From: Chiloscyllium plagiosum
Taxonomy: Eukaryota
Length of the DNA stretch: 64,000 nt
Direction: 5' to 3'
Assembly (NCBI RefSeq): GCF_004010195.1
Contig: NC_057718.1
Span: 64,981,548-65,045,547, forward strand
Part shown: in pieces, positions 2,738 to 51,898 of the stretch
Layout: each line of letters starts with the position of its first letter
How positions within the stretch are numbered: position 1 is the first letter of the stretch
Translations under genes and position numbers: made by a program
Notes under the pieces: generated by a model
The model's input: only the letters and a program-made list of their open reading frames with translations
Told to the model about the DNA's origin: nothing
Databases searched by the model: none

Positions 2738-3604
2738 GGAGAAAGTGAGGTCTGCAGATGCTGGAGATCAAAGTTGAAACTTTATTGCTGGAACAGCACA
2801 GCAGGTCAGGCAGCATCCAGGGAACAGGAGATTCGACGTTTCGGGCACAGGCTCTTCTTCAGGAATGAGCAGAGAGTGTTCAGCAGGAGAAGATAAAAGG
2901 TAGGGAGGAGGGACTTGGAGGAGGGGCGTTGGAAATGTGATAGGTGCCCCTGTTCAATCAAATCATGGCTGGTCTGATTTTAACCTCAAACCTACATTCC
3001 ATCTTATACCTGATAATTCAAAGCACACCACAGAAACAGGCCCTTTGGCCCACATAGCCTGTGCTGATGCATGACACCTTTGTAAACTAAAAACCTTTTG
3101 CCTCTGCGCTGTCCGTATCCCTCTATTCCTTGCCTATTCATGTATCAAAGTTGAAACTTTATTGCTGGAACAGCACAGCAGGTCAGGCAGCATCCAGGGA
3201 ACAGGAGATTCGACGTTTCGGGCACAGGCCCTTCTTTAGGAATGAGCAGAGAGTGTTCAGCAGGAGAAGATAAAAGGTAGGGAGGAGGGACTTGGAGGAG
3301 GGGAGTTGGAAGTGGAGGAGATGCGGTGGAGGGCACCGTCGACCACGTCGCCTTCCTGACCTGCAGTCTTCTTGTTGACCTCTCCGCCTCCATCCTACTC
3401 CGACCTATCACCCTCACCTTGACCTCTTTCCACCTATCACATTTCCAACTCCCCTCCTCCAAGTCCCTCCTCCCTACCTTTTATCTTCTCCTGCTGAACA
3501 CTCTCTGCTCATTCCTGAAGAAGGGCCTGTGCCCGAAACGTCGAATCTCCTGTTCCCTGGATGCTGCCTGACCTGCTGTGCTGTTCCAGCAATAAAGTTT
3601 CAAC
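2738..3604. mobile_element. Composite Penelope-like insertion: two minus-strand pLTR copies around a ~200 bp foreign segment, plus an inverted pLTR copy
   Basis: 13-bp TSD tgagattcatagc at 2725-2737 and 3605-3617. Near-identical copies at ~2768-2945 (-), ~3144-3310 (-) and ~3431-3604 (+). Confidence 0.88.
3511..3546 (+). ncRNA. Minimal type-I hammerhead ribozyme motif (intact)
   Basis: ATTC-CTGAAGA-A-GGGC[CTGT]GCCC-GAAA-CG-TC^GAAT: helix I ATTC/GAAT, CUGANGA and GAAA boxes, 4-bp helix II, palindromic ACGT at helix III. Predicted cut after 3542. Confidence 0.8.
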
Positions 3605-3844
3605 TGAGATTCATAGCACCTAGTCTCCCATGGCTCAGAGTGCTGTTTCTCTCACAGTCATCCTCTCTTCACCTGAGCAATTAGGCAACTAGATTCCTTC
3701 ATCAGGGAATCACGTGGTCACTTCTGCAGCGAGCTTCAGATGTTCGTGCCCTGTTACTATATTTAAAGACCAGTTGCACACCATCTTATAGACTGCAAGA
3801 CAGGTATTGGCCCTCAATCCATGGTTCTCAAGTTATCACATTCA

Positions 3845-4061
3845 AGATATGGTCCAGAGAAAGGTAAAGCTCATTCCTCATGCAGGGACCTGGAGGTCTT
3901 GGTGGACAAGGTGGCGAAGAAGAGGGCCATTCTTTTTCCAGTCCACTGCCTTTGGAGACATGCCCCAGACTCAGCCAACCAGGACAGAAATCGCAGCTGT
4001 GTTCTGAGATGCCCAGCAGTTCAGGAAGGTCATTAATCTCCTGCTTGCCACAGAGGTGAGT
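3845..4061 (+). mobile_element. Harbinger-type Myb/SANT-like DNA-binding protein remnant
   Basis: Frameshifted reading ..RDLEVLVDKVAKKRAILFP..TEIAAV..QQFRKVINLL followed by gtgagt. TATA-like tatatttaaag upstream at ~3758. Confidence 0.6.
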
Positions 4062-4440
4062 GCCACCATTTTATTTCAGCAACCTCACATTTACAGGGCC
4101 AACTCTCACGAGAGCTTTGTCACTGCACATATGTCTCACCAAGGCTCTTGGACTACAACTCTCACTGTTGTATTATGTCCACTCGATGGCTCCCACCACC
4201 TCATCCTGCCCTCTGTGCTTCCTACTTACTCACTGTCGAGGTGGAGGGGATGAGTTATTCACCGTCCCAGCTACTCCTGCATTGCTAATTTCTGCTCTCA
4301 CATCCACTTTACAACATATTCCAATCTTACCTTTGTTTAACAATATGAGAAACTCCTCTCTCCCCTCTGAATGCAGGATCATACTCTGCATTCCTGACTG
4401 ACTGCTGGTAGCCTACCTGGACAGGAATTGGATGAGCCAC

Positions 4441-6377
4441 TTGACGTTCGACAAGGTTCCTCATGGGAGACTGGTTAACAAGGTTAGATCACATGGAATA
4501 CAGGGAGAACTAGCCATTTGGATACGGAACTGGCTTGAAGATAGAAGACAGAGGGTGATGTTGAAGGTTTGCTTTTCAAACTAGAGCCCTGTGACTAGTG
4601 GTGTGCTACAAGGATCAGTGCTGGGTCCACTACTTTTCATCATTTATATAAATGATTTGGATGTGAACATGGGAAATATAGTTAATAAATTTGCAGATGA
4701 TGCCAAAATTGGAGTAAAGGAGGTTACCTCAGAATACAATGGGCCAATGGGCTGAGGAGTGGCAGATGGAGTTTAATTTAGATCAATGTGAGGTGCTGCA
4801 TTTTGCAAAGACAAATCAGGGCAGGACTTATACACTTAATGGTAAGATCCTGGGAGGTGTTGCTGAACAAAGAGACCTTGGAGCGCAGGTTCATAGTTCC
4901 TTGGAAGTAGAGTTGCAGGTCGATAGGATAGTGAAGAAGACGTTAGGTATGCTTTCCTTTATTGGTCAGAGCATTGAGTAAAGGAGTTGGGAGGTCATGT
5001 TGCGGCTGTCCAGGACATTGGTGAGGCCACTTTTGGAATATTGTGTGCAATTCTGGTCTCCCTCCTATCCGAAGGATGTTGTGAAACTTGAAGGGGTTCA
5101 GAAAAGATTTACAAGGATGTTGCCTGGGTTGGAGGATTTGATCGACTGGGAGAAGTTGAATAGGCTGGAGCTGTTTTCCATGGAGCATCAGAGGCTAAGG
5201 AGTGATTTTATGGAGTTTTATAAAATCATGAGAGGTATGGATAGGCTAAATAGACAAAGTCTTTTCCCTAGAATGGTGGAATCCAGAACTAGAGGTTTAG
5301 TGTGAGAGGGGAAAAATTTAAAAGGGACCTAAGGGACAACTTTTTCATGCAGAGGATGGTGCGTGTAAGGAATGAGCTGCCAAAGGAGGTGGTGGAGGCT
5401 GGTACAATTACGCCATCTAAAAGGCATCTGGATGAGTATATGAATAGGAAGGGTTCAGAGGGATATGGGCGAAGTGCTGACAAATAGGACTAGATTAGGT
5501 TTGGATATCTGGTCGGCATGGATGTACAAAGAACAAAGAGCAAAGAAACTTTACAACCCAGGAAGAGGCCCTTCGACTCCAAGCCTGAGCTGATCCAAAT
5601 CCACTGTCTAAACCTGTCGCCCCATTCCTAAGCATCTGTGTCCCTCTGCTCCCCACCTACTCATGCATCTGTCCAGATGCCTCTTAAACAAATCTACCGT
5701 GTCTGCCTCTACCACTTCTGCTGCCATTGCGTTCCAGACATCCACCACCCTCTGTGTGAAGTACTTGCCATGTGTATCCCCCTTAAACTTTTCACCTCTC
5801 ACCTTGAAAGCGTGACCTCTCATTATTGAATCCTTCAGCCTGGGGAAAAAGCTTATCTCTATCCACCCTGTTTAGAACCTTCATGATTTTGTAAACCTCA
5901 ATCAGGTCCCCCCTCAATCTCCTTTTTTCTAATGAAAATAAACCTAACCTGCTCAACCTCTCTTCATAGCTAGCACCTTCCATACCAGGCAGCCTCCTTG
6001 TAAACCTTCTCTGCACCCTCTCCGAAGCGTCCACATCCTTTTGGTAATGTGGCGAGCAGAACTGTACACAGTGTTTTAAATGCAGCAGAACCAATGTCTT
6101 GTACAATTTTAACATGACCTGTCAGCTCTTATACTCAATACCCTGTGCGATGAGGGCAAGCATACCATATGCCTTTTTGACCCTGATATCTGTCAGGGCC
6201 CCAGCTATTTCCTGTCTCACCTCCCTCAGCAACCTGGGATAGATCCCATCCGGTCCTGGGGATTTGTCCACCTTAATAACCTCTAGCCTACCCAACACAT
6301 CTTCCCTACTTATGTCAACTTATGATGTGTTGGACTGTAGGGTCTCTTTCTGTGCTGTACATCTCTCTGACTCTATG
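4441..6377 (+). mobile_element. 5'-truncated CR1-type LINE (RT C-terminal half plus 3' UTR), interrupted at 5526-6320
   Basis: Fragments FDKVPH, QGSVLGPLLF, KFADDAK, LVRPLLEYCVQFWSP. The tail resumes at 6321 (..ctgtgctgtacatctctctgactctatga). Confidence 0.93.
5526..6320 (-). mobile_element. Internally deleted CR1-type LINE nested antisense in the 3' UTR of another CR1
   Basis: (ctttgtt)n tail at ~5526-5548. LYKTLV..CVQFCSPHYQKD..VQRRFTR in ORF 5792-6115. At ~6183 it jumps to the upstream KVDKSPGPDGIYPRLLRE region. Confidence 0.9.
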
Positions 6378-6982
6378 AATATTTTGGGGTTTAATGAGAT
6401 ACAAATACATGGAAATAGGATAGTCCTATTTCCAAGGATCTGAAGTTGCCAATTATGATTTGAGGAAAAATACAGAAAAGAAATTCTCAATGTCAAAACC
6501 TAATATTTTCATTCGCATTGTATTTTCCCATCTTTCTCAGCATTACTCACACCAACCAGACATAAGAAAATACTGCTCAATGTTGTTCCCACAAGCACCT
6601 GAGAATCTCTGTATCCAGAGGCATTGCTTAAAATTTGCTTCTGTGTTCCTTCTTCAATAAACTTGGGTTTAAAGGTGACAATTAAGTTTATCAAATATTA
6701 TGTTCAATAAATATTGATTTGCTATAGTTAAATGTTTGCATGAAAATTGGATAATGTTATCAATTTACACATATGGATGCATAAGTGATTGTGATTGCAA
6801 GCTTTTTTAGTATTTTTGACTAAAATCAAGTGACATACTTGAGGACCTTACCTTGTGAACATTATGAAAACATTTAGTCCACTAATGGTTTTGTTGAACT
6901 ACATGAAATTTGTGTGCTGCCTTAGGCTCAGCAATGTCACAAGTTTAAATACTGTAAGCCCCCACTTATAATTAATAACCAG

Positions 6983-7345
6983 AGAAAAGGAATAGGCCAT
7001 TCAACCCATTGAGCCTGGTCCACCATTCAAAATGATCATGATTATCGAACTCAGTACCCTCTGCCCACTTTCTCCACATACCCATTTGATCACCTTAGTC
7101 CTTAGAACCATATCTAACTCCTTCTTGAAAGCATTCAATGTCTTGCCTCAACCACTTTCTGTGGAAGAGAATTCAACAGATTCATCACTCTCTTTGTGAA
7201 CAATCTTTTTCTCATCTGAATCCTAAATGGTCTACCCCACAATCTTTAGACAGTGGCGCCTAGTTCTGGACTCCCCAGTCATCAGGAACAGCCTTTCTAC
7301 ACTTACTCCAGCTGATCCGTTAGAATTTTAAAAGTCTGTATAAGA
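6983..7345 (-). mobile_element. Decayed CR1-type LINE 3' end
   Basis: aggaataggccattcaacccattgagcctg...tatctaactccttcttgaa..gcctcaaccactttctgtgg, the typical antisense CR1 tail. Confidence 0.7.
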
Positions 7346-7681
7346 TCCCAACAATTGTGGCTGTGTTGCTGGGGGAAAGTCACTTTTGTGTGAAGTAACT
7401 TTAAGTTAATCATAGGTTTCAATGTTAAAACTAGAGTTGGGTTCCCTTGAACATTTCTCACCGAGAAAGACCAATGTAGAATTTGAAAGCGAGTATCATT
7501 CACATGCATAAGTGTTCATTCCAAGCTGCAATGATTCCAAAATGAAACAAATCACTAAATATAAAAGAAATACTGTGCAGTTGTGTACTTGAGGGCGTTT
7601 CTCAACAGAAAAAGAATGATAAACAATACCAGTTGCAATTCTCTACATTCCTAAATAGCCACATCCCTAAGTATGGTAACA

Positions 7682-8048
7682 GGGTGGCTTAGTGGTTAGC
7701 ACTGCTGTTTTACAGCACTAGAGACCTGGGTTCAATTCCAGCCTCTACTGACTGTATAATCCTTGTATAATCCAAAGATACGCAGGTTAGGTGAAATGGC
7801 CATGCTGAATTGTCCATAGTGCTCAGGAATGTGTAGGTTAGGGGTAAATGTGGGGGGGGTGGATTACTCTTCAGAGGGTTGGTCTGGACATGTTAGGTCA
7901 GAGTTGAAAAATGTGGTGCTGGAAAAACACAGCTGGCCTGCTGTGTTTTTCCAGCACCACATTGTTCAACTCTGGTCTCCAGCATCTGCAGTCCTCACTT
8001 TCTCCTTGTTAGGTCAGATGGCTTGTTTCCACACTGTAAGGATTCTAT
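7682..8048 (+). mobile_element. HE1-type tRNA-derived SINE (internally deleted) interrupted by a ~100 bp Penelope fold-back at 7903-8006
   Basis: A-box ggtggcttagtggttagc and B-box gggttcaattcc. The nested insert has a 12-bp TSD tgttaggtcaga (7891-7902, 8007-8018). Confidence 0.85.
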
Positions 8049-8184
8049 TACTTTTTTTAAAATTAAAATTACAATATATACAAATGTTAAGAAAAAAATT
8101 CATTTTGTTTTAGATTGATCAGGCTCCATCTATTAGCAGATGTTAGTGCGTGTAGGAGGCAACTGAAGTCTGAAGGGGCTGGTT

Positions 8185-8998
8185 TCCCTGGTTTGTTGGA
8201 AACTGAGGAGTGACCTTATGCAAGTTTTAAAATCATGAGGGGCATGGATAGAGTGTATAATCAAGGTCTTTTCCCCAGGGTGGGGGAATTCAAAACTAGA
8301 CAGCATAAGTTTAAGGTGGGAGGGAAGATTTAAATGCAACCTGAGGGGCAACATTTTCTCGCATTGGATGGTGCAAATATAGAATGAACTGCCAAAGGTA
8401 GTGGTGGAAGCTGGAACAATCACAACATTTAAAAGGCATCTGCATGGGTTTATGAATAGGAAGGGTTTAAGGGACATGGACCAAATGCTGGCAAGTGGGA
8501 CTAGATTAATTTTGGATATCTAGTCGGCATGGGCGGTTTGAACTGATGGGTCTGTCTCTGTGATGCATGACCTATGACTGTGACTCTGTGACTGTAGCTG
8601 CTACCTGCACTGACTAACATGTACCACCAGATGGAGCCTAGGGCTTCAGTGCAAGTTCAGAGTAGTGAAAACCAGGAAAAGTGGAGCTGCATCATGATGG
8701 CAATAAGCCCTGTGGTCTTTCAAAATAAGAATGAGAACTTGGCTCTTTTGACATGTAGTTTGACGCTACAATAATGAGTTAGGCTGCCAGGCAGACTGAT
8801 ATGATTCTTTCTTCCAGAAGAATAGATGGAAGCAGGTACAATTACAACATTTAAAAGGCATCTGGATGGGTATATGAACAGCAAGGATTTAGAGAGGTAT
8901 GGGCCAAATACTGGCAAATGGGACTAGGTTAGATTAGGATGTCTGGTCGACAATGCTGAGTTGGACTGAAGGGTTTGTTTCTGTGCAGTATAACTCAA
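8185..8998 (+). mobile_element. Two CR1-type LINE 3' fragments (8185-8594 and 8826-8998)
   Basis: Both contain acaacatttaaaaggcatctg..gggtatatgaa..aaggg. The first ends in (gactgt)n. Confidence 0.85.
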
Positions 8999-9937
8999 TG
9001 TAGAAGGCCAAGTAAGGGGATGTGTTCAGACCTAGATTTCAAAGTAACACAATTTATTATGCATTTATACTAAATAGTATTACACATGATAATTACACAC
9101 CAGCTCCAACTTGTAGTTACATTAGGTAATGATCATTCCATCATTGCAGGATCTAATACCTTGACACAACAGTCCTTCCCAAGTTTTTTAACCCTTTCCA
9201 AATATATTAATTGACATTTATACAATCTCAAAAGTTTTACAATAATTTTTCCTTGTATCTTTCCTTGTTCTGCACAAGTCTTTAATTTGAGTCATCTTTG
9301 TCAGAAAGTGGGGCAGGTAAGTCTGTGACCAAATATAGATAAAACTGATGATTTTGCTTCTTCTTTGGAATATCAGAGATTTAATCAATCTGACTGAAGG
9401 AACTTCCATTGATATAACTGCAGGAATGAGTGGGGAAACTAGATTGTATCTTCTCTATGTTTAACATCTAGGTCAGGTGATATTATTAATTTTCTAAGAA
9501 AAAAGTGATGTTATTCATCCAAAGATAGTTTTTTATTCCACATACTCTGCTTGGAGTTGATATCTGCTATTGAAGCATAATCTCACCAGTGTTCTCTTTG
9601 TGCCTGAAGTCAAATATTTATCAAAAGCAAGAGGACATTGTCAAAGTCAAGTTGTTTCTCATCAATTTGTTATTTATATTTTCTGATGAACTGTTCTTAT
9701 AGTAGTTTGCTCTCAGCTGTGCTCCATTTGTTTTATTGTTCAATCCCAAAGCTGTTCAATCCCAAAGCTGTTCAAAATCTTGGGAATAGTGCTTTCTACA
9801 TTTGCTAATTTGTTGATTTCTCAATTGAATTTGAATTTTTCTGGTGGAAAAACTGGTATAGGTGCATTTTGTTATATTGTCTAATTGTTGACAGGTACTT
9901 GAAGTTTCTTCCAAGATCGCAATTTCCCTTTCCCTCC

Positions 9938-10600
9938 AGTGCATCTCCTCCACATTCGACAGAAATTTCCCTGTACCTCCACCAATGTCATCTACTGTAT
10001 CCATGACATCCGATGTAGTCTCCTCTACATCAGGGAGACAGGACGCCTACCTGCGGATCATTTCAGAGAACATCTCTGGGACACCCGCACCATCAACCCC
10101 ACCACCCTGTGGCTGAACATTTCAATTCTCCTTCCCACTCCATCAAGGACATGCAAATCCTGGGCCTCCTCCATTGCCAAACCCTTACCACCTGATGCCT
10201 GGAGGAAGAACACCTCATATTCCATCTTGGGACCCTGCAACCACACTGGATAGATGTGGATTTCCTCATTTCCCCTCCTCCCACATTATCTCAGTACCAA
10301 GCCTCCAACTCGACATGGCCCTCTTGACCTTTCCCATCTATCCGCTCCACTTTCCACTCTGACCTATCACCTTCTCCCTCACCTTCATCCATCTATCACA
10401 CTCTCAGATACCTTCCCCCCAACCCATCCCCTTCCCATTTATCTCTCAGCCTCCCTGGCCCACAAGCCTCATTCCTGATGAAGTGCTTATGCCCGAAATG
10501 TCAATTCCCCTGCTCCTCGGATGCTGCCTGACCTGCTGTGCTTTTCCAGCACCACATTCTCAACTCTGATCTTCAGAATCTGCAGTCCTCACTTTCTCCC
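9938..10600 (+). mobile_element. Penelope-like element 3' part with a GIY-YIG endonuclease remnant
   Basis: ORF 9939-10253 reads FPCTSTNVIYCIHDIRCSLLYIRETGRL..HFREHL (VIY..C..YIGET..R..EH motif). pLTR tail with a decayed hammerhead at 10471-10506. Confidence 0.9.
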
Positions 10601-12121
10601 CGTTGTTGATTATTTGTTTCATTTGGAGGGTTATTGTTTAGATTTTAAAATGCTTATATTCCACTCATATTTTGATGTTGTTTTGTGTTCTTGGTTGATT
10701 AAAGTTGTTGAATCTTTGATGCAATAAAAATTAGCGCTATAGTACCAAAGTGAAAATTGTTCAAATTCTGCTGTTCTTAATATTGTTTCCAATGTAAAGT
10801 TCAATTTTTCTTTATTGATATGGCTTCTTCGTAGAGATGAATGACAATGAACAACAATACTTCTTTTCTAGTTTCACTTAAGGACTTCCCAAAGATCCAT
10901 GGGCAGAAGGTTTCTTGAAATGGTTTCACGCAATAAGTCAGTAATTTTATTTTTGACTGTATCAAAAATGTCTGCCAAACAAAACTACTTAGTTGCTGTG
11001 TAAAAATTGCTTTCCTCACTCAAATGTCAAAACAACAAAGATTTCACTGATTTAACTGTTCAGCCTTTGAAACCTCGAATTCCAATTACTGATATTTCCA
11101 ATCAATCTACTTAAGTCTGTTACTGAAGATTTCTCAACTTGTTTTTCCTTCACCTTATCATTGGAAAAGTTGTTTGATAGCCACAAAAAGTTTTAATTGT
11201 GCTCCTACGCCTAGCTTTTCCAAAAACAATTTTTTGTGTTCTTCTTTATTTGTCCATCAACAAAGCTTGCTCCACAACTTGTTGCTTCCTAAATCTCAGC
11301 AAGTCCCATTATTTCAATCAATAAATCAGTAGTCCATGACCTTCTGCTCAGTGGTTCACACATAACAATCTTTTCCTCTTCTTTTGCATAGCAGCAACTA
11401 TTCCTGTCCTTGTCTGTATCTCTCAGTCTGAGTTTGTGTCCACATAGAACAACCACCCCTCTTTTGTATCAAGATGCGAAAGCTGGCATTTGAGTTATTC
11501 ACACAAGACATTCAAATCAAAAAGGTGCCATACAAAAGGTTATTATACGAGATAGAACCAATTTGGGGGCAATCTATTAGTATGGAATGGAGATTTGTTA
11601 ATATACAGAAAACAGATCAATGGGTCACTTTTGGGTTAGAAAGACAAAACCAAAGGGACACTTATTTAAACCAGAGATGTGAAAAATTTTCTTCTCCTTA
11701 AGGGCCGTGACTGTCTGGAATTCTCTATTCCAGAGAGTTTTAGAAGCTAATATCAAAGTATTTAAAAAGGAAATTGATAGATTTTCAAAATCCAGTAATT
11801 GAGTGCTATGATAACTTGGCACAAAAGACCAGTTGAGGCCTACAGTAGATCAGTCATGATCTTATTGAATAGCCGGACAGTCAAGACAGTCCATGGTTTA
11901 CTCTGGTTCTTATTCCTTTTGATTCTTATGGTTTTCAATATATTTTTGTCTAACCGCTTTTCCTTTGACAATCAGATCACACCATCCAAGCATCAAGGCA
12001 AGGCTCCATACAATTTCAACATGTTCCCTATTCAGGACATTCTATTTCTCTGGAAATAAAAGGAAGCTTTCTGAAACATAACAGTCTTGAGAAATTCCCA
12101 GAGACATAGCAAAGAGCAGTG

Positions 12122-12382
12122 TTAGATTAGATTCCCTACAGTTTGGAAACAGGCCCTTCGGCCCAACAATTCCCCCCCAACCCTCTGAAGACTAATGCAC
12201 CTAACATGATGGCCAATTTAGAATAGCCAATCTCCCTAACCTGCATATCTTTGGACTGTGGGAGGAAACCAGAGCAAACCCAGGAAGAACGTGCAAACTC
12301 CACACAGACAGTCACCCAAGGCTGGAATTGAACCTGGGTCCCTGGCGCTGTGATGAAGCAGTACTAACCACTGAGCCACCAC
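12122..12382 (-). mobile_element. HE1-type SINE
   Basis: Minus strand: gtggtggctcagtggttagtactgc..gggacccaggttcaattcc, V-domain gtctgtgtggagtttgcac, and an (aatct)n tail. Confidence 0.88.
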
Positions 12383-15531: not shown

Positions 15532-15756
15532 ATAAAACTGAAAGAACTGCAGATGTTATAAATCAGAAATAAAAACAGATATTGCTGGAAAAGTTCAGAA
15601 GGTCTAGCAGAATCTGTGGAGAAAAATCAGAGTTGATGTTTCAGATTGAGTGACCCTTCCTCTGAGAAAGGGTCACTCAACACAAAATGTTAACTCTGAT
15701 TTCTCTCCGCAGATGCTGCCAGAGCTGTTGAGATTTTCCAGCAATTTCTGTTTTCT
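15532..15756. mobile_element. Older Penelope-like fold-back palindrome (second tail family)
   Basis: Arms centred at ~15660 (..gagtgacccttcctctgagaaagggtcactc..). 15-bp TSD ttcatttgNtagaaa at 15517-15531 and 15757-15771. Confidence 0.75.
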
Positions 15757-22090: not shown

Positions 22091-24720
22091 TAAGATCTAA
22101 CCTTGCTAACCAGTCTCCCAGGGGGAACCTTGTCAAACACCTTACTGAAGTTCATATAGAACATGTCTACCGCTCTGCCTTCATCAATTCTCTTTGTTAC
22201 TTCTTCAAAAAACTCAATTAAGTTTGTGAGACATGATTTCCCAAGCTCAAAGCCATGTTGACTATCCTTAATCAGTCCTGTCCTTTCCAATTACATGTAC
22301 ATCCTGTCCTTCAGGATTCCCTCCAACAATTTGCCCACCACTGACATCAGGCTTACTGGTCTACAGTTCCCTGGCTTGTCCTTACCACTTTTCTTAATAG
22401 TGGCACCACATTAGCCAACCTCCAGTCTTCCAGCACCTTACCTGTGACTATCGATGATACAAATATCTCAGCAAGAGGCCCAGCAATCACTTCCTTAGCT
22501 TCCCTCAGAGTTCTAGGGTACACCTGATCAGGTCCTGGGGATTTGTCCACTTTTATATGTTTCAAGACATCCAGCACTTCCTCCTCTGTAATATGGATAT
22601 TTTTCAAGATGTCACCATCTATTTCCCTACATTCTATATTTTCCATGTCTTTTTTCACAGTAAACACTGATGCAAAATACTCATTTAGTATCTCCTCCAT
22701 CTCAGCGGCTCCACACAAAAGCCGCCTTGCTGATCTTTGAGGGGTCCTATTGTCTCCCTAGTTACCCTTTTGTCCTTAATGTATTTGTAAAACCCCTTTG
22801 GATTCTCCTTTACTCTATTTGCCAAAGCTATTTCATGTCCCCTTTTTGCCCTCCTCATTTCCCTCTTAAGTATATTCCTACTGCCTTTATACACTTCTAA
22901 GGTTTGACTTGATCAATCCTATCTACACCCGGCATATGCTTCCTTCTTTTCCTTAACTAAACCCTCAATTTCTTTAGTCATCCAGCATTCCCTATACCTA
23001 CCAGCCTTTCCTGTCACCCTAACAGGGATACGCTTTCTCTGGATTCTCGTTATCTCATTTCTGAAGGCTTCCCATTTTCCAGCCAAGCCTCTACTTGTGA
23101 ACATCTGCCCCCAATCAGCTTTTGAAAGTTCTTGACTAATGCTGTCAAAATTGGCCTTTCTTCAATTTAGAACTTCAACTGTTAGATCTGGTCTATCCTT
23201 TTCCATCACTGTTTTAAAACTAATAGAACAATGGTTGCTGATCCCAGAGTGCTCCCCCACTGACACCTCAGTCACCTGCCCTGCCTTATTTCCCAAGAGT
23301 AAGTCAAGTTTTGCACCTTCTCTAGTAGGTACATCCACATACTGAATCAGAAAATTTTCTTGTACATGCTTAACAAATTCCTCTCCATCTAAACCCTTAA
23401 CACTATGGTAGTCCCAGTCTATGTTTGGAAAGTTAAAGTCCCCTACCATAACCACTCTATTATTCTTACAGATAACTGAGATCTCTTTACAAATTTGTTT
23501 CTCAATTTCCCTCTGACTATTAGGGTGTCTATAATACAATCCCAATAAGGTGATTATCCCTTTCTTATTTCTCAGTTCAATCCAAATAACCTCGCTGGAT
23601 GTATTTCCGGGAATGTCCTCCCTCAGTACAGCTGTAATGCTATCCCTTATCAAAAATGCCACTCCCCCTCCACTCTTGCCTCCCTTTCTGTCGTTCCTCT
23701 AGCATTTGTATCCTGGAACATTAAGCTGCCAGTCCTATCCATCCCTGAGCCATGTTTCCGTAATTGCTATGATATTCCAGTCCCATGTTCCTAACCATGC
23801 CCTGAGTTCATCTGCCTTCTGTGTTAGGCCCCTTGCATTGAAATAAATGCAGTTTAATTTATCAGTCCTACCTTGTTCTCTGCTTTGTCCCTGCCTGCCC
23901 TGACTGTTTGACTTGCTTCTGTTCTCAACTGTACCAGTCCCAAATTGATCTCTTTCTTCAGTATCTCCCTGGGTCCCCCCACCCCCCCTCAACCAGCCTT
24001 ACTAGTTTAAATCCTCCCGAGCAGCTCAAGCAAATCTCCCTGCCAGTATACTAGTCCCCTTCCAATTTAGGTGCAATCTGTCCTTCTTGTACAGGTCACT
24101 TCTACCCTAGGAGAGATTTCAATGATCCAAAAAATGTGACTCCTTCTCCCATACAGCAGCTCCTCAACCATGCATTCATCTGCTCTATCCCCCTATTCCT
24201 ATCCTGACTAGCTTGTAGCACCGGGAGTAATCCAGATATTACTATTCTCGAGGACATCCTTTTTAAATTCCTGCCTAACTCTCTGTATTCTCCCTGCAGA
24301 ATCTCATTCTTTTCCATTCCTATGTCATTGGTTCCAATGTGTACAATGACCTCCTGCTGGCCCTCTCCCTTTGAGAACATACTGCATCCTCTCTGAGACA
24401 TCCTTGACCTTGGCACTAGGCAAGGAATACATCATTCTGATTTTTTGCTGCTGGCCACAGAAACATCTGTCTGTACCTCGGACTAGAGAATCCCCTAGAA
24501 CCTGACATACCCCTCATTGCATTAGAGCCAGTCTCAATACCAGAAACTTGGCTGTTCATGCTCATTTCCCTGAGAATCCATCACCCCCTACACTTTCCAA
24601 AACAGCATACTTGTTTGAAATGGGGATAGCCACAGAAGACTCCTGCACTACCTGCTGACCTCTTTTAATTTTCCTAGAGTTAACCCATCAATGTGACTGT
24701 ATCTGCAACTTTTCTCCCTT
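22091..24720 (-). mobile_element. CR1-type LINE: ORF1 esterase part, ORF2 APE endonuclease and N-terminal RT; 3' end missing
   Basis: VIVHIGTNDIG (SGNH esterase), CIYFNARGL..IAITETWL, VMVGDFNFPNIDW, KSPGPDQVYPR, QHGF..GKSCLTNLIEFFE..FDKVP. Broken by frameshifts and stops. Confidence 0.95.
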
Positions 24721-43964: not shown

Positions 43965-44292
43965 TGCAGCCACAATATGACCTCCCAATTCTTTACTCAA
44001 TGCAGTTCTTGCCTAAATTCTTGGACACATACGTCTCCATCAAGGATGGACCCCTCAGCACCACACTCTGCCACAAACCCACAAACAACCTCACAATGCT
44101 ACACTTCTCCAGCTTCCACCCAAAACATTGCAGCCACAATATGACCTCCCAATTCTTTACTCAATGCAGTTCTTGCCTAAATTCTTGGACACATACGTCT
44201 CCATCAAGGATGGACACCTCAGCACCACACTCTGCCGCAAACCCACAAACAACCTCACAATGCTACACTTCTCCAGCTTCCACCCAAAACAT
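43965..44292. repeat. 164-bp tandem duplication
   Basis: 43965-44128 versus 44129-44292, with two substitutions. Confidence 0.95.
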
Positions 44293-44839
44293 ATTAAAAC
44301 AGCCATTCCCTATGGACAAGTCCGACGCATACACCTGATCTGCTCAGATGAGGAGGAACGTGATGGACACCTGGAAATACTCAAGGATGCCCTCACAAGA
44401 ACGGGGTACGATGCTCAACTCATCGACCGCCAGTTCCGACCTGCCACAGCAAGGAACCGTAATGACCTCCTCAGGAGACAGACACGTGCTGCAACTGACA
44501 GCGTACCCTTCATTGTTCAGTACTTCCCAGGAGCTGAAAAATTATGCCATGTTCTTCATGACCTGCAACACATTATCAGTGAGGATGAGCACTCTCCAAG
44601 ACCTTCCCCACACCTCCACTACTTGCCTTTAAACAACCGCCAAACCCCAAACAGATCATTGTTCGTAGCAAACTGCCGGCTCTCAGGACAACTCCATACA
44701 ACCCTGTCACGGTGGACGCTGCAAAGCGTGTCAGATTGTGGACATAGATATCACTATTACGCGTGGGAACACCTCCCACCGTGTACATGGCAGGTACTCA
44801 TGTGACTCAGCCAACATTGTCTATCTTATACGTTGCAGG

Positions 44840-44892
44840 NNNNNNNNNNNNNNNNNNNNNNNNNNNNNNNNNNNNNNNNNNNNNNNNNNNNN
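44840..44892. other. Assembly gap (53 N)
   Basis: Run of n inside the Penelope element. Confidence 1.
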
Positions 44893-45431
44893 CACACTCA
44901 CACATGCACCCCCTCACAGACTTAAGACACTCTGCACTCACTACATACACACACTTTCTCACACTCACAACCCCCAACCCAGACACACAAAGACACTCAT
45001 AGACAAAGACCCACATGCACACATATATTTTGTGGGGTGAATTTGTACTTGCAGAGTTACATTATACTTTGCTCAAAAACTGCATGCATTCATGTAGAAC
45101 TCTTAAGCTCAAAAACTGCATGAATTTATGTAAAACTCCGTTATCTCACTTTTTAGATTAGAATCAATCTAAACATCATGGCATAGACAGAGAACACAGG
45201 GGGCTAACACCTTCAACATCTTGTCTTGCTATCACCATTGTTAACAGCTAACCCGAGAATGCAACTTTAAAAAAAAAGTTGTGTGATTTACACATGAAAG
45301 AAGTGAAACTATCAGTGTATTCTAACAGATGAAAGGCTTAACAGACAATCAATTTTTCAATGTATAATTTCAGTTACATCACACTGTAAATTTTTGCTAT
45401 AAATTCTGTGTTAGATCGAGCCCTCCACTAT

Positions 45432-45466
45432 CACCTGATGAAGGAGTGTCGCTCCGAAAGCTAGTG
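45432..45466 (+). ncRNA. Minimal hammerhead ribozyme motif, second family
   Basis: CAC-CTGATGA-A-GGAGT[GTC]GCTCC-GAAA-GC-TA^GTG: helix I CAC/GTG, palindromic AGCT at helix III. Confidence 0.8.
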
Positions 45467-48400
45467 TGCTTCCAATTAAACCTGTTGGACTATAACCTGG
45501 TGTTGTGTGATTTTTAACTTTGTTCTTGCCTAATACAGTCAAAATTGACCTTCCTCCAATTTAGAACTTAAACTTTTAGATCCCACCTATCCTTTTCTAT
45601 TACTATTTTGAAACTAGAAGAAGAATGATTACTGGCCCCAAAGTGCACCCCCACTGACAGCTATTTCCCAAGAGTAAGTCAAGTTTTGCTCCTTCTCTAG
45701 TAGGTACATCCACATACTGAATCAGAAAATTTTCTTGAATACTCTTAACAAATTCCTCTCCATCTAATCCCTTAACATTATGGCAGTCCCAGTCTATGTT
45801 TGGAAAGTTAAAATCCTCTAGAATTACCACCCAATTATTCTTATAGATAAATGAGATCTCCTTACAAATTTGCCTCTCAATTTCTCACTGACTATTAGGA
45901 GGTCTATAGTACAATCCCAATCAGGTAATCATCCCTTTCTATTTGTCAGTTCTACCCAAATACCCTTGGATGTATTCCCAGGAATGTCCTCCCTAAGTAC
46001 AGCTGTAATGTTATCCCTAATTAATAACATCACTTCCTACCCTCTCTTGCCCCCTTTTTATCCTTTCTTCGAAACCTGTACATGGAACATTAAGCTGCCA
46101 GTCCTGTCCATCCTTGAGCCACATTTCTGTAAAACCGCTGTGATATCCCAGTCACATATTCCTAACCATGCCCTGAGTTCATCCGCCTTACCTGTCAGGC
46201 CTCTTGCATTGAAATGAATGCTGTTTAATTTATCAGTCATACATCGTTCTCTGCTTTGTTCCTGCCTGCCTTGACAGTTTGACTGGCTCTAGCAAATCTC
46301 TCAGGCAGTATATTAGTCCTCTTCCATTTCAGGTGCGATCTGTCCTTCATATACAGGTCACTTCTACCCCAGAAAAGATTCCAATGACCCAAAAATGTGA
46401 ATCCTTCCCTACACCAGCTCCTCAGCCATGCATTCATCTGCTCTATTCTCCTATTCTTATTCTCACTAGCTCGAGGCACCAGATATTACTATACTTAAGG
46501 GCCTACTTTTTAAATCCCTGCACAATTTCCTATATTCTGTTCTCAGGACCCTGTCCTTTTCTCTTCCTATGACATTAGTTCCAATGTATTCAATGATCTC
46601 CTGCTGATCCCTCTTCCCTTTGAGAATATTTTGCACTCTCTCTGAGTTGTCCTTGATCTTGGCACAAAGGAGGCACACACCATCCTGATGGCTCATTGTC
46701 GGCCATGGAAATGCCTGTCTGTGCTTCTGACTAGAGAGTCTCCTATCACAATCGATTGCTTGGAACCTGGCGTACCCCTCATTACAGTTAAGCCAGTCTC
46801 AGTACCAGAAAGCTGGCTGTTGACGCTACATTCCCTCAAGAGTGCATCACCCCCTACATCTTCCAAAACAGCACACTTGTTTGAGGTGGGGATAGGCACA
46901 GGAGACTACTGCAGTACCTGCCTCCCTCTCCTACCTTTCCAGGAGGCAACTCATCTACCTGACTGTGTCTGCAGTTTTTCTTCCCTTCCTATAACTGCCA
47001 TCCGCCACACCCCCTTGTTCCTATAAATTCCTCATTTTCTCTAACTGCCATTCAATCCAATCTATGCAATCTGATAGGATTCGCAACCAAACACCCTTGA
47101 TGCACACATAACATAAGGAACATTAAAACTCTCCCTAATCTCCCACATCCAACAGGAAGAGCACATCATTCTACTAAATGCCATCTTTTCACTTAGCAAT
47201 AATGTACCCCGAAAATAGCACTGTCTTCCTGTTTTAAAAACATTGCTCCCTGATAACGTACTATCTATGTTTTATATTTTTAAAATTAATCAAAAGGCAG
47301 ATCTCAGTTAACAACATAATCAAGAAAATCCTACTCCACTCACTACTGTAAATTTACAATAAAAACAGTAGGCTTACACTTTAAAAAATATCCACTTAGC
47401 TGCTCCCCTGCTGAGAGCATGTCACACAGATTTCTCCAAGGTCACATGTGAATTACACTGTTTGTCTATTTTTCTTAGAACAAACCAATGTCTGGAGACA
47501 CTTGTTACAAAAAGCTGAGGCAGTCAGCTGTGCACGTTCACTGCTGGATCAGACAGCTGTGCAGGTTTAATACTTGTTTGTTTCACCTCTAACGTGGCAT
47601 CTGCTTCCTCTCTCTTCCTCCTTTTATTAAATTGCTGTTGTTTTGATCTTTTTTTTCCAAAGTTCAAGAACAATGCAACAGCTTATAAAACAGTAATTCC
47701 TGTTCCAAAAATTTGAGGAAATCAACACTGAAACTACCTCAAAAAAAGAGCAGCTCTGACAGCCACAATTCTTTCCCATCCTCCATCTTGGATTATGCAG
47801 AATCCTCTTTGACCTATGAGTGAGGCAGGTTCTGGAAGCCAGGTCAGGAGGCACAATACGCCAATATTATCTTTGGGAGGCTGTCCTCTTGAGCACAGAA
47901 CACCCCATGAAGCAGGTACTCCATCATTCTTTACTGCCATTTCCCCAACGTTGATGAGAAAGTCAGCCTTCACACACTCACCGGCCTTTCAATGTCTAGT
48001 CTATGATAGCAGTGAAGACAGACTGACCCTTAAGCAGCTATTAATTGGCCCATTAAGGACCTCAATACTTCTAGAATGAATGGAAACCCTAGGGCATCAT
48101 ACACACCTCCTGCTTTATGAAGAATTGTGGGCAAGAACATTATGGCTATTTTGCATACCTGCCAGCTGAAAACATGTCCAGCAAGGGGACATGGTGTTTT
48201 CAAGAATTTGGTGTTTAATCAGTACTTTTTAAGAGTAGTATAGGGAGCACTGAAAGTCAGCACCTCATGTTAATTTAAATGATGATGACAGGCAGCCCAG
48301 CACTGAACTGCACTCTTGAGTGGCTGCAGACCTCAGTAGGAGAGCGAATTTTGTATGAATGCCTTCTCAAACTAATGCTTAAAGCTCACGTCGCAATTTA

Positions 48401-48785
48401 AAACAAGATGGATTCTGGCTCCAGCATATACTGGAAGGTATTGTAGTAGGACTACATTGCTCACAGAGATTGAGGGCCTCCAGTCAAGCATTTAGAAGGG
48501 AATGCGGGCAGGTAACCACTGAAATTACCTGTGGATCTTGATACAAGATCAGGAGATGTTCAGTGATCACACTTGAGTAGTCAAGGTCAATGCATTCATT
48601 TTCAAATCGCACATCTTTACAACTGCACCAGTAGCTGCAGAAACTGCTCAATTCACCAAACCCCAGCTCACTCTCTCACCAATGATCTCTGTCTATAAAG
48701 ACTCAAATGTCATTTGTAGCTTCTCCCAACTGTCATTCACTCAACAATGCTATAAGCCTTACATTCACATCTAAGTTTGCAAACA

Positions 48786-49295
48786 CTGAGGGATAGATAG
48801 GGTAGACATGATAGAATTTTTCCCTTTGGTAGAAGGATCAAAGACCGGGGGCATAGATTTAAAGTGAGGGGCAAATGGTGTAGAGGAGATGTGAGGAAAA
48901 CACTTTTCGATCCAGAGGTTGGTGGCAATCTGGAACTCACTGCCTTTAAGAGTGGTAGAGACAGAAACCCTCATAACATTTGAGAAGTATTTAGATGTAC
49001 ACTTGCAATGCCAAGGCAGGCAAGGCTTTGGTGTGATGCTGGAAAAGCATAGCAGGTCAGGCAGCATCCAAGGAGCATGAGATCTCCTGCTCCTTGCATG
49101 CTTCCTGACCTGCTGTGCTTTTCCAGCGCCACACTCTCAACTCTGATCTCCAGCATCTGCAGTCCTCACTTTCTCCTATAAGGCTATGGGCCAAGTGCTG
49201 GAAAATGGGACTAGAAAAGTTAGGTGTTTGCTTTTGACTGATACAGATTTGGTGGGCTGAAGGGCCTTTTTCCTGTGCTGTGGACCTCCATGACT
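48786..49295 (+). mobile_element. CR1-type 3' end interrupted by a Penelope fold-back at ~49032-49177
   Basis: CR1 tail motifs. The insert is flanked by aaggctttgg (49022-49031) and aaggctatgg (49180-49189). Confidence 0.85.
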
Positions 49296-49540
49296 GTACG
49301 ACATTGCCCAAACACATCATGACATACTTTCCTTCTTTTGCAAGACAAGTTTCCTCAGACTGCAGGGATTGGAAGCTAAGCTGTGGGGGCAGGCACACTA
49401 CATATTCTTATCCTTACAGACGAGCTTGTGGTTTCTGTACTTTTGGCAGCTATCACAGAGGTCACAAGCTATTCCTATCTTACCCACCTTCTCATGTCAC
49501 CCAGCAAATATTTTCTAATTAAGCTGTTCAGAGATGTTAT

Positions 49541-49612
49541 GACACACCACTGGAGCAAGTGGGACTTGAACCGAGACCTCCTGGTCCAGAGGTAGAAGAC
49601 ACTACCACTGCC
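49541..49612 (-). mobile_element. tRNA-derived SINE head (non-HE1)
   Basis: Minus strand: gggcagtggtagtgtc (A-box) ... ggttcaagtccc (B-box). Confidence 0.6.
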
Positions 49613-49744
49613 CCTCCCCCCATCTCATCCTGCAATCAATTTTTCAAGTTTAGAAGTGCACATTGTGTAATCATCGATTGCTTGCTTACCACCCTTTACT
49701 ACAACCCTACCTATGTCCCTCCCTTCTTTCAGATACACCGGACT

Positions 49745-50130
49745 AGCAACAGATTGGACTTTTGTGTGAGGTTGTAAGATCAAGATAAGCAGCATGATGC
49801 TGACGATGAAGAAACTCCATATTTTGATCTCATACTTTCAGCGTTGTGATGTGGTGTCCACAAAGCTGTATGTGTACAGTAAATTGCACCTGCACTGGGA
49901 GGAAGCCCACTATTCCATGTGTACATTCTCCCCACTACTCTCTATTCTGAGAACATAATGAACTTCCCTCTCCTGGTAGAAGCAGCTTCCATCATCTGTC
50001 CAACGCAGCTGGGGATCTTGAACTTGGAGGTGGAACAGGCATCCTACTTAAGTCTGGAAAGAGCTGCTGCGAGCAAAATCAGCTTCACAATCACTCCACA
50101 TGCAATATCATTCCTTATAGACTTCACCTG
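49745..50130 (-). mobile_element. Harbinger/PIF transposase remnant (DDE)
   Basis: Minus strand FARSSSFQT (ASGSFQ-like), then RGKFIMF, then GIVGFLPVQ/GAIYCTHTAL (cf. GFP.VQGAIDCTH, with the catalytic D changed to Y and a frameshift). Confidence 0.75.
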
Positions 50131-51281
50131 TTTTACCCACTCTGAGAAACACCAAGCACTTCCCACAAACTCAAAAAGCATCAGTTAGTGCAGCAGGAGT
50201 AGCAGGAGAGGAGTGAACGAACTGGGGGCGAATGGGGGGGGGGGGCGGAGAGAAGTGAATATGGGGGTGAATGGCAGAAGTGAAGTGAGTGAACCTGGGG
50301 GTGAATGGAGGAAGAGAAGTGAGTGAATCTAGGGGTGAACAGAGGGAGAGGGAGAGGAGTCAATTTAGGGTGAATGGCAGAAGAGCAGTGAGTGAACCTA
50401 GAGGTGAACGACAGGAGAAGAGCCCATGAACCTGGGGGTGAACTGTGACAGCAGGAGCTGAATCAAGAAGTGAAACTCATGAGGTGACAACAAGGTTCAA
50501 GAAGTGATATAGAGCAAGAGGATTAACTGCTTAGGAACCAGCTTGGTAAACTGAGTGAACAATACCTGGAGGAAGACAGAGTGTAAAGTCCATATTTTCG
50601 TAATTTGTAGTTTGCGAGGAATAGAGAGGGAGACAGAGACAGAGAGAGAAAGAGAGAAATCTGATCGGTTTGGTCAGAGTAAGGTTGAGAAATTGGTTTC
50701 TAGTTTATTGTTTGCCATTGTTAAAGCTCATAATTGCAGGAGAACTTGTAGAATGCTCCTCCTACAATATGTGGGAAGTCAGGGACACCTCCAGTCTCCA
50801 TGGTGACCATGTATGCAAAAAGTGTGTTCAGCTGCAGCTCCTGATTGACCTCAGGAAGCAGCTGGAGCTGCAGATAGACTCGTGACAGACCATCCATAAG
50901 TTGAGAATTTTGTGGAAAGCATGTTTATTGAGCTGGTCACACAAGTAAAGGCTGCATGGACACAAAAGCATTGAGGACCACTAGGAAGACGAGTAGGTGT
51001 GGACCGGTATTGTAGGAATCCCCTGCTGCCATTTCCCTGTTAAATAGATCTGCCCTGTTGGATACTGTCAGGGCATGGTCTCTTAGGGGAAAGCAACAGC
51101 CAGGTTTTTTGGCACGATGGTTGGCTCTGCTGCACAGCAGGGGAGGTAAAAGACTGGGAGAGTTTTAGTGGTAGAGGGCTTGATTATCCTCTATCACTAA
51201 AGCTGACAGGTGGTTCTATGATTGCCAAATGGTATGTTGCCTGTTGTTGTGGTTCTGTTCGCCGAGCTGGAAGTTTTTGTT

Positions 51282-51321
51282 GCAAACGTTTCGTCCCCTG
51301 GCTAGGCGACATCATCAGTGC
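51282..51321 (-). ncRNA. Minimal hammerhead ribozyme motif, third family (inverted copy)
   Basis: Minus strand GCA-CTGATGA-T-GTC[GCCTAGCCAGGG]GAC-GAAA-CG-TT^TGC. Confidence 0.75.
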
Positions 51322-51858
51322 TTGGGAGCCTCCTGCGAAGCGCTTCTTTGATGTTTCCTCCGGTGTTTATAGTGGTCTGTCCCTGCCGCTTCCGGTTGTC
51401 AGTTTCAGCCAACCGCTGTAGTGGTTGGTATATTGGGTCCAGGTCGATGTGTTTGTTGATGGAGTTTGTGGATGAATGCCATGCCTCTAGGAATTCCCTG
51501 GCTGTTCTCTGTCTGGCTTGCCCTATGATAGTAGTGTTGAGATAAATCAATAAACGATATAAATGGAACACGAAATGACACGACCAGCTATCCTTAGTAG
51601 CCACACACGCAGACAACAAGCAACATGAATTCGACTGGGACAACACTACTATCATAGGGCAAGCCAGACAGAGAACAGCCAGGGAATTCCTAGAGGCATG
51701 GCATTCATCCACAAACTCCATCAACAAACACATCGACCTGGACCCAATATACCAACCACTACAGCGGACGGCTGAAACTGACAACCGGAAGCGGCAGGGA
51801 CAGACCACTATAAACACCGGAGGAAACATCAAAGAAGCGCTTCGCAGGAGGCTCCCAA

Positions 51859-51898
51859 GCACTGATGATGTCACCTAGCCAAGGGACGAAACGTTTGC
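51859..51898 (+). ncRNA. Minimal hammerhead ribozyme motif, third family
   Basis: GCA-CTGATGA-T-GTC[ACCTAGCCAAGG]GAC-GAAA-CG-TT^TGC: helix I GCA/TGC, palindromic AACGTT. Confidence 0.75.

Follow-up and report, generated by a model that had tools for sequence, protein, structure and literature searches.

The three motif families found in the window, a 64,000-nt stretch of the genome of Chiloscyllium plagiosum, are real minimal hammerhead ribozyme motifs carried in the end-repeats (pLTRs) of Penelope-like elements (PLEs). In the reading that we prefer and consider probable, they are minimal type I hammerheads, those of families A and B lie at the very start of a capped RNA, and most solo copies are short run-off cDNAs of uncut RNA: about half of the sampled A and B copies end just before the motif, likely because the element RNA begins there and is copied uncut. 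The pairing of hammerhead and PLE is already published, and the finding as first given in the earlier note repeats a 2014 result in another vertebrate, at far higher copy number; its by-product, the edge at which the copies end, matters more. 'Self-cleaving' denotes a predicted function here, and the genome gives no sign of cleavage. The features concerned are as follows (positions within the window).

2772–2946, minus strand: second family A copy, in direct tandem with 3140–3314, 377 nt apart; helix II mismatch
3140–3314, minus strand: family A inverted copy; core G5 changed to A, predicted inactive
3431–3606, plus strand: 3′ end fragment of family A (Neptune-type PLE), by blastn; 5′ end at −84 from C3
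3481–3486, plus strand: TTATCT box of family A, 30 nt before the putative start base; TATA-position element by its presumed function
3511–3546, plus strand: family A minimal hammerhead, by sequence and descriptor; predicted cut 3542/3543
3511, plus strand: A3511, putative transcription start of family A and first base of helix I
44017–44840, plus strand: broken ORF remnant of family B, from the C-terminal part of the reverse transcriptase (RT) region to the start of the endonuclease; an assembly gap follows
45398–45404, plus strand: TATAAAT box of family B, by sequence, 29 nt before the putative start A45427
45427, plus strand: putative transcription start of family B, an A at −8 from C3 in TCCACT, from short-copy 5′ ends and the preceding G
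45432–45466, plus strand: family B minimal hammerhead; helix III AGCU, predicted cut 45463/45464
45475–45480, plus strand: family B poly(A) signal ATTAAA, within 45475–45516; hexamer present in 54 of 68 sampled B copies
About 45492–45494, plus strand: equivalent of the family B poly(A) site, then a GU-rich downstream stretch ending at 45516; from RNA reads at matching places of locus L015
51243–51539, minus strand: family C inverted arm with an intact hammerhead at 51321–51282
51570–51878, plus strand: C-terminus of the family C (Poseidon-type) endonuclease; tblastn 97% to the L070 frame
51859–51898, plus strand: family C minimal hammerhead; helix III ACGU, predicted cut 51895/51896

The family A fragment at 3431–3606 is the inverted partner of the copies at 3140–3314 and 2772–2946.

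Motif structure and copy number

The four motifs of the earlier note lie where it placed them, with the helices and cut sites it gave, and each has the single bulged base after A9 and the loopless helix III (ACGU or AGCU) that it described. CUGANGA and GAAA boxes, an NUH site and a helix III with no loop place them in the minimal hammerhead class. A descriptor that demanded a palindromic helix III, boxes free of mismatches and three or more pairs in helices I and II gave four exact-box matches in the window, and five matches when one box mismatch was allowed; exact-box matches numbered zero both in 100 first-order Markov simulations and in the reversed window, and one-mismatch matches came to five in total over all 100 simulations. 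An Rfam scan of the window at E values up to 1 returned no hammerhead, only hairpin-driven miRNA matches below the gathering score. Twelve places in the window (nine A, one B and two C) lie within 12 mismatches of a core, so the claim of at least ten intact or decayed motifs in 64 kb stands; intact ones number only four.

Two claims about pairing needed narrowing. That the helices always pair is true of the four window motifs and fails genome-wide, where helix I carries a U·U mismatch in 22 of the first 30 family A genome loci: GATT follows the cut site there, and ATTC precedes the core in the long reference copies. The helix III palindrome has only two states, ACGU (A and C) and AGCU (B), and its covariation amounts to a single double change between families. 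By a by-eye tally of the first 100 listed family A cores, 74 have ACGU, 24 are CpG-decay forms (ACAU, AUGU, AUAU) and two are other, with no compensatory swap to AGCU. MAFFT could not align the three families by structure, and pairs were counted by descriptor instead; helix I counts made in this way include junction-derived bases and are not taken as evidence for covariation. The first helix II pair is GC in 107 and GU in 23 of the 132 family-assigned motifs.

An 864-kb sample of the genome gave 30 descriptor matches, against none in its reversed control. The bulge between A9 and 10.1, optional in the search, was present in all 30, and with the palindrome requirement lifted helix III read AGCU in 11, ACGU in eight, a CpG-decay form in nine and something else in two. 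Pairing in trans of both helix III and helix I is possible only between members of the same family; minimum-energy cofolds of motif pairs differ from the active dimer. Exact cores in the 3.56-Gb genome number 88,166 for A, 24,318 for B and 15,446 for C, with none in the reversed controls. The proposed multi-family, high-copy PLE system is thus borne out in copy number, families and PLE link; it is not new, being already described in the available text of Cervera & de la Peña 2014 (PMC4209133).

The 5′ edge of families A and B

In the 864-kb sample, copies were picked by their tail and not by the ribozyme. Those below 85% identity were removed before 5′ ends were counted (31 of 189 A, 2 of 68 B), and the tail queries L005, L017, L018, L037 and L040 were left out, L037 and L040 having drawn in other repeats. 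The 5′ end fell between −10 and +4 from core base C3 in 75 of 158 A copies and 32 of 66 B copies. Among copies at risk the proportions were 75/110 and 32/44, compared with 19/160 and 4/54 for six upstream 15-nt windows summed (Fisher p 4e-22 and 9e-12). The edge peaks sharply at −4 in A (the family mode: by eye 20 of 58 truncated copies, and 17 of 117 among those scored) and at about −8 in B; it is not a single base, many ends lying at −3 to +4. A lack of upstream references for old subfamilies is a possible artefact raising the −2 bin of B, and for this reason young single subfamilies were tabulated apart. Family C had no edge in the stretch −14 to −31, about 95 of 100 copies being intact there.

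The edge lies some 32–37 nt upstream of the cut site, and copies that end at it retain the whole core. This position bears directly on the idea that ribozyme cleavage creates the 5′ end of the copied RNA, the solo copies being cleavage products, which is the simplest sense of the earlier note's 'self-cleaving retroelement system'. Intact cores in more than 120,000 places would suit such an origin, but within 7 nt of the cut site 5′ ends do not rise above background (A 15/146, B 4/60 copies at risk) and the pile stands upstream with the core kept. These counts contradict the idea for A and B, and we regard it as highly improbable, even if a minor share of copies could have arisen in this way.

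Upstream of the edge, by about 30 nt, are conserved boxes that the short copies lack: TTAT[CT]T, which is not a standard TATA box and occurs at −32 to −41 in 34 of the 39 long A copies, and TATAA[AT], which occurs at −36 to −40 in 18 of the 21 long B copies. The 3′ ends of B copies form two clusters about 35 nt apart, at +81 to +91 (29 of 68) and +118 to +126 (27 of 68). The great number of 90–130-nt copies, and target duplications of at least 8 bases in 15 of 60 loci, might suggest an independent SINE-like or retrozyme family that copies itself from an internal promoter, and the Penelope element of D. virilis has, in the available text of PMC2377424, a TATA-less internal promoter and an intron. 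We consider such a family very unlikely here. The short copies match long, ORF-linked subfamilies in sequence, their 5′ edge is ragged, and the box is upstream of them and absent from them; none of the tandem repeats in the window overlaps a hammerhead motif, and the window thus holds no hammerhead-bearing tandem array of the retrozyme kind.

The base preceding the edge is often G. Genome-wide and unfiltered, G precedes the B edge in 1,795 of 2,849 cases against 26% expected, inverted arms contributing part of this count (by eye, 28 of 100 rows). At clean junctions, a few inverted ones still being classed as clean, it precedes 16 of 18 B and 9 of 16 A edges; among copies not chosen on the preceding base it was found at the edge in 5/8 for A and 2/3 for B. 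Away from the edge G is at background (8/22 and 7/25, with 6.3 and 7.0 expected). In the A subfamily found in the window the excess is weak, at 7 of 20 by an eye count. Of nine A junctions with G and a target duplication of at least 8 bases, six have the G as the final base of the duplication and three as an extra base; with six of nine inside the duplication, the G at A junctions could often be target-derived. For the larger A subfamily, the five bases immediately past the cut site read the same as G+ATTC, a match that allows a template-switch origin there.

These last observations are the ground for supposing that the edge records arrest or template switching of the RT at the ribozyme fold (or a dimer, or a bound protein) within a longer RNA, the G coming from the target or from a jump to GAUUC past the cut site, a supposition that also fits the scatter of 5′ ends over −10 to +4. 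We think it unlikely. To reach the ends, the RT must already have passed through the structure, beyond which they lie; the offsets −4 and −8 differ by family and track the upstream box at about 30 nt; B, which has no such microhomology, shows the strongest G excess, and junctions elsewhere show none; and family C has the same fold without an edge in the stretch given above. An RNA start at the edge remains our preferred reading, and the literature searched held nothing relevant to a start-site reading of PLE hammerheads.

Host elements, RNA and a model of the transcript

Families A and B are assigned to Neptune-type PLEs by their linker, and family C provisionally to Poseidon-type PLEs by resemblance. 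The linker between RT and endonuclease has the Neptune trait CX2-5CxxC, as CHGGRCKTC in locus L259 and CHRRNCKTC in L292; family C frames (L060, L070) have no zinc-finger linker. Pfam RVT_1 was found in three of six proteins tested (B and C frames). The B remnant at 44017–44840 finds 150 scored relatives in the genome, whose longer frames match RVT_1, and has no Pfam match itself; nor has the family C endonuclease fragment at 51570–51878. Endonuclease fragments carrying YIGET or YIGQT motifs had no Pfam match, and we presume a GIY-YIG endonuclease from these motifs by eye. In 14 of 20 loci an A hammerhead follows the start of the endonuclease peptide at a distance of 413–500 nt; a full-length A element was found in none of these 20, mostly owing to assembly gaps. 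Locus L259 holds a complete B unit of 3,438 nt with a TATA box and a hammerhead at each end, an ATG at +121 and, by self-match, a partial tandem pLTR. The family B start codon is at the end of the tail, whereas the family C hammerhead overlaps the end of the ORF, the stop codon TAG lying in loop II. Inverted arms adjoin 82 of 158 A copies and 40 of 66 B copies.

At locus L015, poly(T) loose ends in 601 and 487 reads place a B poly(A) site 27 nt downstream of the cut, in a poly(A)-primed RNA library from a run that may be of a species other than Chiloscyllium plagiosum. Family B appears to seed poly(A) sites used in RNA; family A has no shared poly(A) hexamer (7 of 189 copies). In this one library polyadenylated reads cross the cut site, where read ends do not pile up, and none of the places listed is one at which many molecules start or end. 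A sister run (X21) gave no matching reads, and contig runs X1 and X4 indicate presence only. Box spacing, the G test and the poly(A) site were worked out in this analysis.

Reads that span the cut site also raise the prospect, real although clearly the less favoured one, that the ribozyme is no longer a working cutter and is kept as a binding site, 5′ leader or passenger with no role in mobility, which would be compatible with the start-site reading. The U·U mismatch in A and the lack of a genomic pile at the cut site agree with this, and in vitro hammerhead mutants left insertion unaffected and Naiad PLEs thrive without a hammerhead, according to the accessible parts of PMC11167929 and PMC8557442. 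Yet boxes, bulge, paired helix II and palindrome are kept in three divergent families while N7, loop II, bulge and H17 vary, and related motifs cut weakly as dimers or with protein (available text of PMC4209133 and PMC11167929).

Under the start-site reading, RNA polymerase II would start at −4 (A) or −8 (B), and the element RT would start internally, about 85–90 or 120–125 nt downstream, as in vitro for an Anolis PLE. It would reach the cap after 90–130 nt, add a C opposite the cap and then integrate; integration from both nicked strands would be common and would produce the head-to-head arms. A full B mRNA would have a hammerhead behind the cap, another ahead of the poly(A) tail, and no others. 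We expect the two to pair by way of the palindromic helix III and to cut, at a slow rate and probably aided by protein, freeing a unit-length RNA able to circularise or decay. Solo copies stand alone, are mostly decayed and are likely inert.

In retroviruses and LTR elements, the U3-R-U5 arrangement has its promoter upstream, the segment from start to poly(A) site repeated at both RNA ends, an RT start just downstream and a strong-stop cDNA that ends at the cap. The B layout resembles this arrangement in its putative start site and in having a poly(A) site 27 nt downstream of the cut. For PLEs it is an analogy and not membership: they are target-primed, have no tRNA primer or integrase, and it is the short cDNA that would integrate. 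Evenly balanced, in our judgement, is the fuller proposal that the Neptune pLTR is a working U3-R-U5, with a TATA promoter that starts the RNA at the hammerhead, a hammerhead that occupies R from cap to poly(A) site, and an RT that begins in U5; that several hundred thousand solo hammerheads are integrated strong-stop cDNAs recording the copying of the cap by a telomerase-related RT; and that the two hammerheads of the mRNA dimerise end-to-end, removing cap and tail together.

The rebuilding of PLE pLTRs and the role of their hammerheads are described as open questions in the accessible text of PMC8557442. If the edge is a start site, the genome preserves, on a very large scale, a natural record of the start points of PLE RNA and of its RT, and of whether the template was cut or uncut, and exact ends are predicted for CAGE, cyclic-phosphate sequencing and circle RT-PCR. 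If the U3-R-U5 reading is true, it offers a direct test of what PLE ribozymes do.

Comparison with known systems

The minimal hammerheads of metazoan PLEs described by Cervera & de la Peña 2014 (PMC4209133) share with those here the missing helix III loop, the bulge between 9 and 10.1, the G10.1-C11.1 pair, the palindromic 15.2-16.2 and a short helix I, and likewise occur in pLTRs as several families per genome, mostly solo or in opposite-strand pairs. In its available text that report covers many covarying families per genome, a dimer model and hosts including fish, coelacanth and Xenopus; it names no cartilaginous fish there, and treats solo copies as plain truncations, with no start-site edge. 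We count about 128,000 exact cores against its approximately 4,000 in coelacanth and 9,000 in Xenopus, the search methods being different. Dimer cleavage of PLE hammerheads was shown by Lünse et al. 2017, according to the part of a review available (PMC6765202), and shark motifs may already appear in that study or in supplements of earlier work.

Another close system is Poseidon of Anolis carolinensis (PAc; Frangieh et al. 2024, PMC11167929). As described in the accessible text, PAc also has two RT start sites bounding a 30–40-nt tail about 90–125 nt past the core, and uses uncut RNA as template with no read ends at the cut site. RT starts are internal, both strands are extended, uncut RNA is the main substrate and cleavage is protein-assisted; that text contains no mapping of start site, cap or poly(A). 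The PAc ORF starts inside the ribozyme, whereas the B ATG follows the tail and the C ORF stops in loop II. Endonuclease-bearing PLEs of the Penelope/Poseidon and Neptune groups (Arkhipova et al. 2013, PMC3846280; Craig et al. 2021, PMC8557442) share with the elements here, in the available parts of both papers, the order of RT then GIY-YIG, a partial tandem pLTR, an adjoining inverted copy and a tail, and the CX2-5CxxC linker of their Neptune clade is likewise present in A and B. The same parts report a putative TATA box and Inr in one rotifer pLTR, and 5′ truncation as described there favours no particular position.

Non-LTR retrozymes (Cervera & de la Peña 2020, PMC7229834; Li et al. 2026, 10.64898/2026.07.22.740005) have type I hammerheads and PLE pLTR ancestry, and their copy number is high, reaching 120,000 in axolotl; the accessible text of Li et al. 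includes one chondrichthyan. Retrozymes form tandem arrays of 170–400 nt, whereas the copies here are dispersed, single or head-to-head.

Hammerheads in the window and the elements that carry them

The earlier note described minimal hammerheads in three families (A, B and C) of Penelope-like elements (PLEs), and a sequence check confirmed four of them, with helices, bulge, palindromes and cut sites all as claimed:

3511-3546, + strand: family A hammerhead
45432-45466, + strand: family B hammerhead
51859-51898, + strand: family C hammerhead
51321-51282, - strand: family C hammerhead

A strict hammerhead descriptor gave four matches in the window, none in 100 Markov simulations and none in the reversed window; an Rfam scan of the window left the hammerheads undetected. 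The proposed total of at least 10 intact or decayed motifs holds as a sum, with 12 places no more than 12 mismatches from a core (A 9, B 1, C 2), but only four are intact. Exact core patterns in the 3.56-Gb host genome number 88,166 (A), 24,318 (B) and 15,446 (C), as expected of the high-copy, multi-family system that had been suggested, and the reversed patterns are absent genome-wide. Leaving helix III free raises the genome-wide family A count to 124,657. An 864-kb sample (four 200-kb blocks plus the window) held 189 A and 68 B tail-anchored copies, about 224 and 81 per Mb; extrapolation from these five blocks gives roughly one million A and B fragments genome-wide. Judged by the resemblance of its repeats, the host is presumably a cartilaginous fish.

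The Penelope-like attribution also stood, as reverse transcriptase (RT) and endonuclease ORFs are tied to the A, B and C hammerheads. A 3,438 nt family B unit (locus L259) has a TATA box and a hammerhead at each end and an ATG at +121, and its broken frames encode an RT (Pfam RVT_1), a CHGGRCKTC linker and a YIGET endonuclease motif; an upstream hammerhead of this kind is present in 3 of 19 loci. In family A the hammerhead lies 413-500 nt past the endonuclease peptide in 14 of 20 loci (14 of 26 matches in a separate search), and locus L292 has a CHRRNCKTC linker. By sequence, both linkers fit the Neptune-clade linker between RT and endonuclease given in PMC8557442. For family C, Pfam identified an RT in locus L063, and no Neptune-type linker was found in the frames seen. 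The family C ORF stops inside hammerhead loop II; in the window, at 51862-51878, the CUGAUGA box translates as Thr-Asp-Asp, with the stop in loop II. By resemblance, we take family C to be Poseidon-type. Pfam gave no match for three short fragments searched.

The interval 2772-3606 holds three family A copies of 175 nt each, of which two are direct and one is inverted; the direct pair, separated by about 190 nt of unrelated DNA, is the sole same-strand pair near enough for a dimer, and each member has a defect. Head-to-head family A stubs, truncated within or beyond the core, occur at 7898-7976, 15580-15745 and 49037-49127, and such stub hairpins explain spurious Rfam miRNA matches at 7898. 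At 43965-44292, where a family B ORF remnant has its 5′ end, 164 nt are tandemly duplicated (98% alike), which probably reflects template slippage during insertion or an error of assembly. The - strand of 23162-23698 carries a 178-aa apurinic-endonuclease-like frame of a LINE, presumably CR1/L2-type by resemblance.

Helix III and helix pairing

The helix III palindrome is genuine and has two states, set by family. With no palindrome required, 30 motifs comprised 11 AGCU, 8 ACGU, 9 CpG-decay forms and 2 others. The palindrome proposed earlier is therefore real, but its covariation reduces to two family-fixed states, AGCU being found in none of the 100 family A cores listed. Helices I and II, said always to pair, do so in the window's four motifs; elsewhere GATT follows the cut site in 22 of 30 A loci, where it is mismatched (U·U) with ATTC. 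Helix III together with both trans helices I can form only between members of one family, and the families would therefore not cross-cut. Locus L061 and sampled copies show compensatory changes between subfamilies: an older family related to C combines a longer helix II (GUUAC/GUGAC or GUAAC) with UCA/UGA in helix I, and older subfamilies related to A have GGGU/ACCC in helix II and AGUC/GACU in helix I.

Copy ends, the preceding G and polyadenylation

Copies were gathered through the tail downstream of the hammerhead, the ribozyme having no role in selection, and positions are numbered from core base C3. The 5′ end lies within -10 to +4 in 75 of 158 A copies and 32 of 66 B copies, counting those with 85% or more identity to a long reference; these make up 68% and 73% of the copies reaching this interval. 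For six 15-nt windows upstream, the corresponding share is 0-25% each. Around the cut site (predicted first base of the 3′ product +28 in A, +29 in B and +34 in C), 10% (A) and 7% (B) of those reaching it end. By eye, 42 of 100 copies of a young A subfamily extend past -14, and 20 end at -4, 13 at -5 to -7, 24 at -3 to 0 and 1 at -10; the commonest ends of a young B subfamily are -8 (12), -7 (10), -6 (8) and -9 (7). About 30 nt upstream of the edge, long copies carry TTAT[CT]T (A, 34/39) or TATAA[AT] (B, 18/21). The edge base is A in both families, in surroundings that we regard as initiator-like. Family C showed no edge from -14 to -31, about 95 of 100 listed copies being intact there.

RTs copy caps as G (L1, Ty1). 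Where the base preceding A(-8) of family B differs from the templated C, it is G in 1,795 of 2,849 places genome-wide (26% expected), a count that takes in inverted arms as well as long copies bearing point changes. Filtered junctions (30 loci per family) have G in 16/18 B (p 4.5e-8) and 9/16 A (p 0.011), and by-eye counts, from 100 rows listed each, are 33/48 (B) and about 38/66 (A). In copies not chosen on the preceding base, G precedes 5/8 A and 2/3 B edge ends and is at background before non-edge ends. Both arms of one head-to-head insertion (L177/L178) have the extra G. Against a cap origin, the window's own A subfamily has it in only 7/20, and in the main A subfamily G+ATTC repeats sequence past the cut site. 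In family A target duplications, G is the last duplicated base in 6 of 9 testable cases, which takes away strict 'non-templated' proof of cap copying; it is compatible with cap copying, because cDNA with an extra terminal C would prefer targets having G there.

RNA reads were examined on L015:340-1700, which holds B and A copies. X20, a single-cell poly(A) run whose organism may differ from the window's species, gave 4,779 reads there, mostly 90-95% alike; run X21 gave none. B-sense polyadenylation at +55/+57 is marked by loose poly(T) ends in 601 reads at place 413 and 487 reads at place 415; it falls 12-14 nt past ATTAAA/AATAAA and ahead of a GU-rich stretch. X20 depth peaks in the bin spanning the cut site, and no place in the region was listed with many read starts or ends. 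These reads may be host transcripts ending in B copies. The hexamer occurs in 54/68 B versus 7/189 A copies; most A subfamilies lack it, and the window's has AATAAA in its tail (3591-3596). More than 1,000 reads of one library use a poly(A) site supplied by B copies; present tens of thousands of times, the family could influence where host transcripts end.

Proposed mechanism and known systems

Anatomy, counts, edges, G excess and poly(A) site form the established part of the mechanism. The order in a B pseudo-LTR (pLTR) would be promoter, start (-8), hammerhead, poly(A) site (+56), RT starts (+88, +122) and ATG, and a transcript from the upstream pLTR would bear a hammerhead at its beginning and at its end. 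RT starting in the 5′ tail would meet the cap after 90-130 nt; solo copies would arise because it stops there and the cDNA integrates, and the template would therefore be uncut RNA. Priming from both target strands would yield head-to-head arms, which are present in 82/158 A and 40/66 B copies. To make long copies, RT would have to jump at the cap or use a circular template. Two-end dimer cleavage followed by ligation, as modelled by Cervera & de la Peña 2014 (PMC4209133), could supply the circle and fits the layout; strand transfer, or plain decapping and decay, would fit likewise.

A literature search of partial coverage turned up nothing published on start-site edges, cap G or poly(A) sites in the pLTRs of PLEs; for a rotifer pLTR, a putative TATA plus Inr has already been described. 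The core finding is ordinary, and the start-site reading offers a lead that can be put to the test. The 3′ ends of B copies form two clusters, +81 to +91 (29/68) and +118 to +126 (27/68), resembling the two internal RT starts of an Anolis PLE in Frangieh 2024 (PMC11167929). Cervera & de la Peña 2014 (PMC4209133) give the bulge, palindrome and pairing features as the signature of PLE minimal hammerheads, which cleave weakly and in dimers only. Every palindrome and helix feature of the A, B and C motifs matches that signature, and the hammerheads here are a very abundant further case of this known kind.
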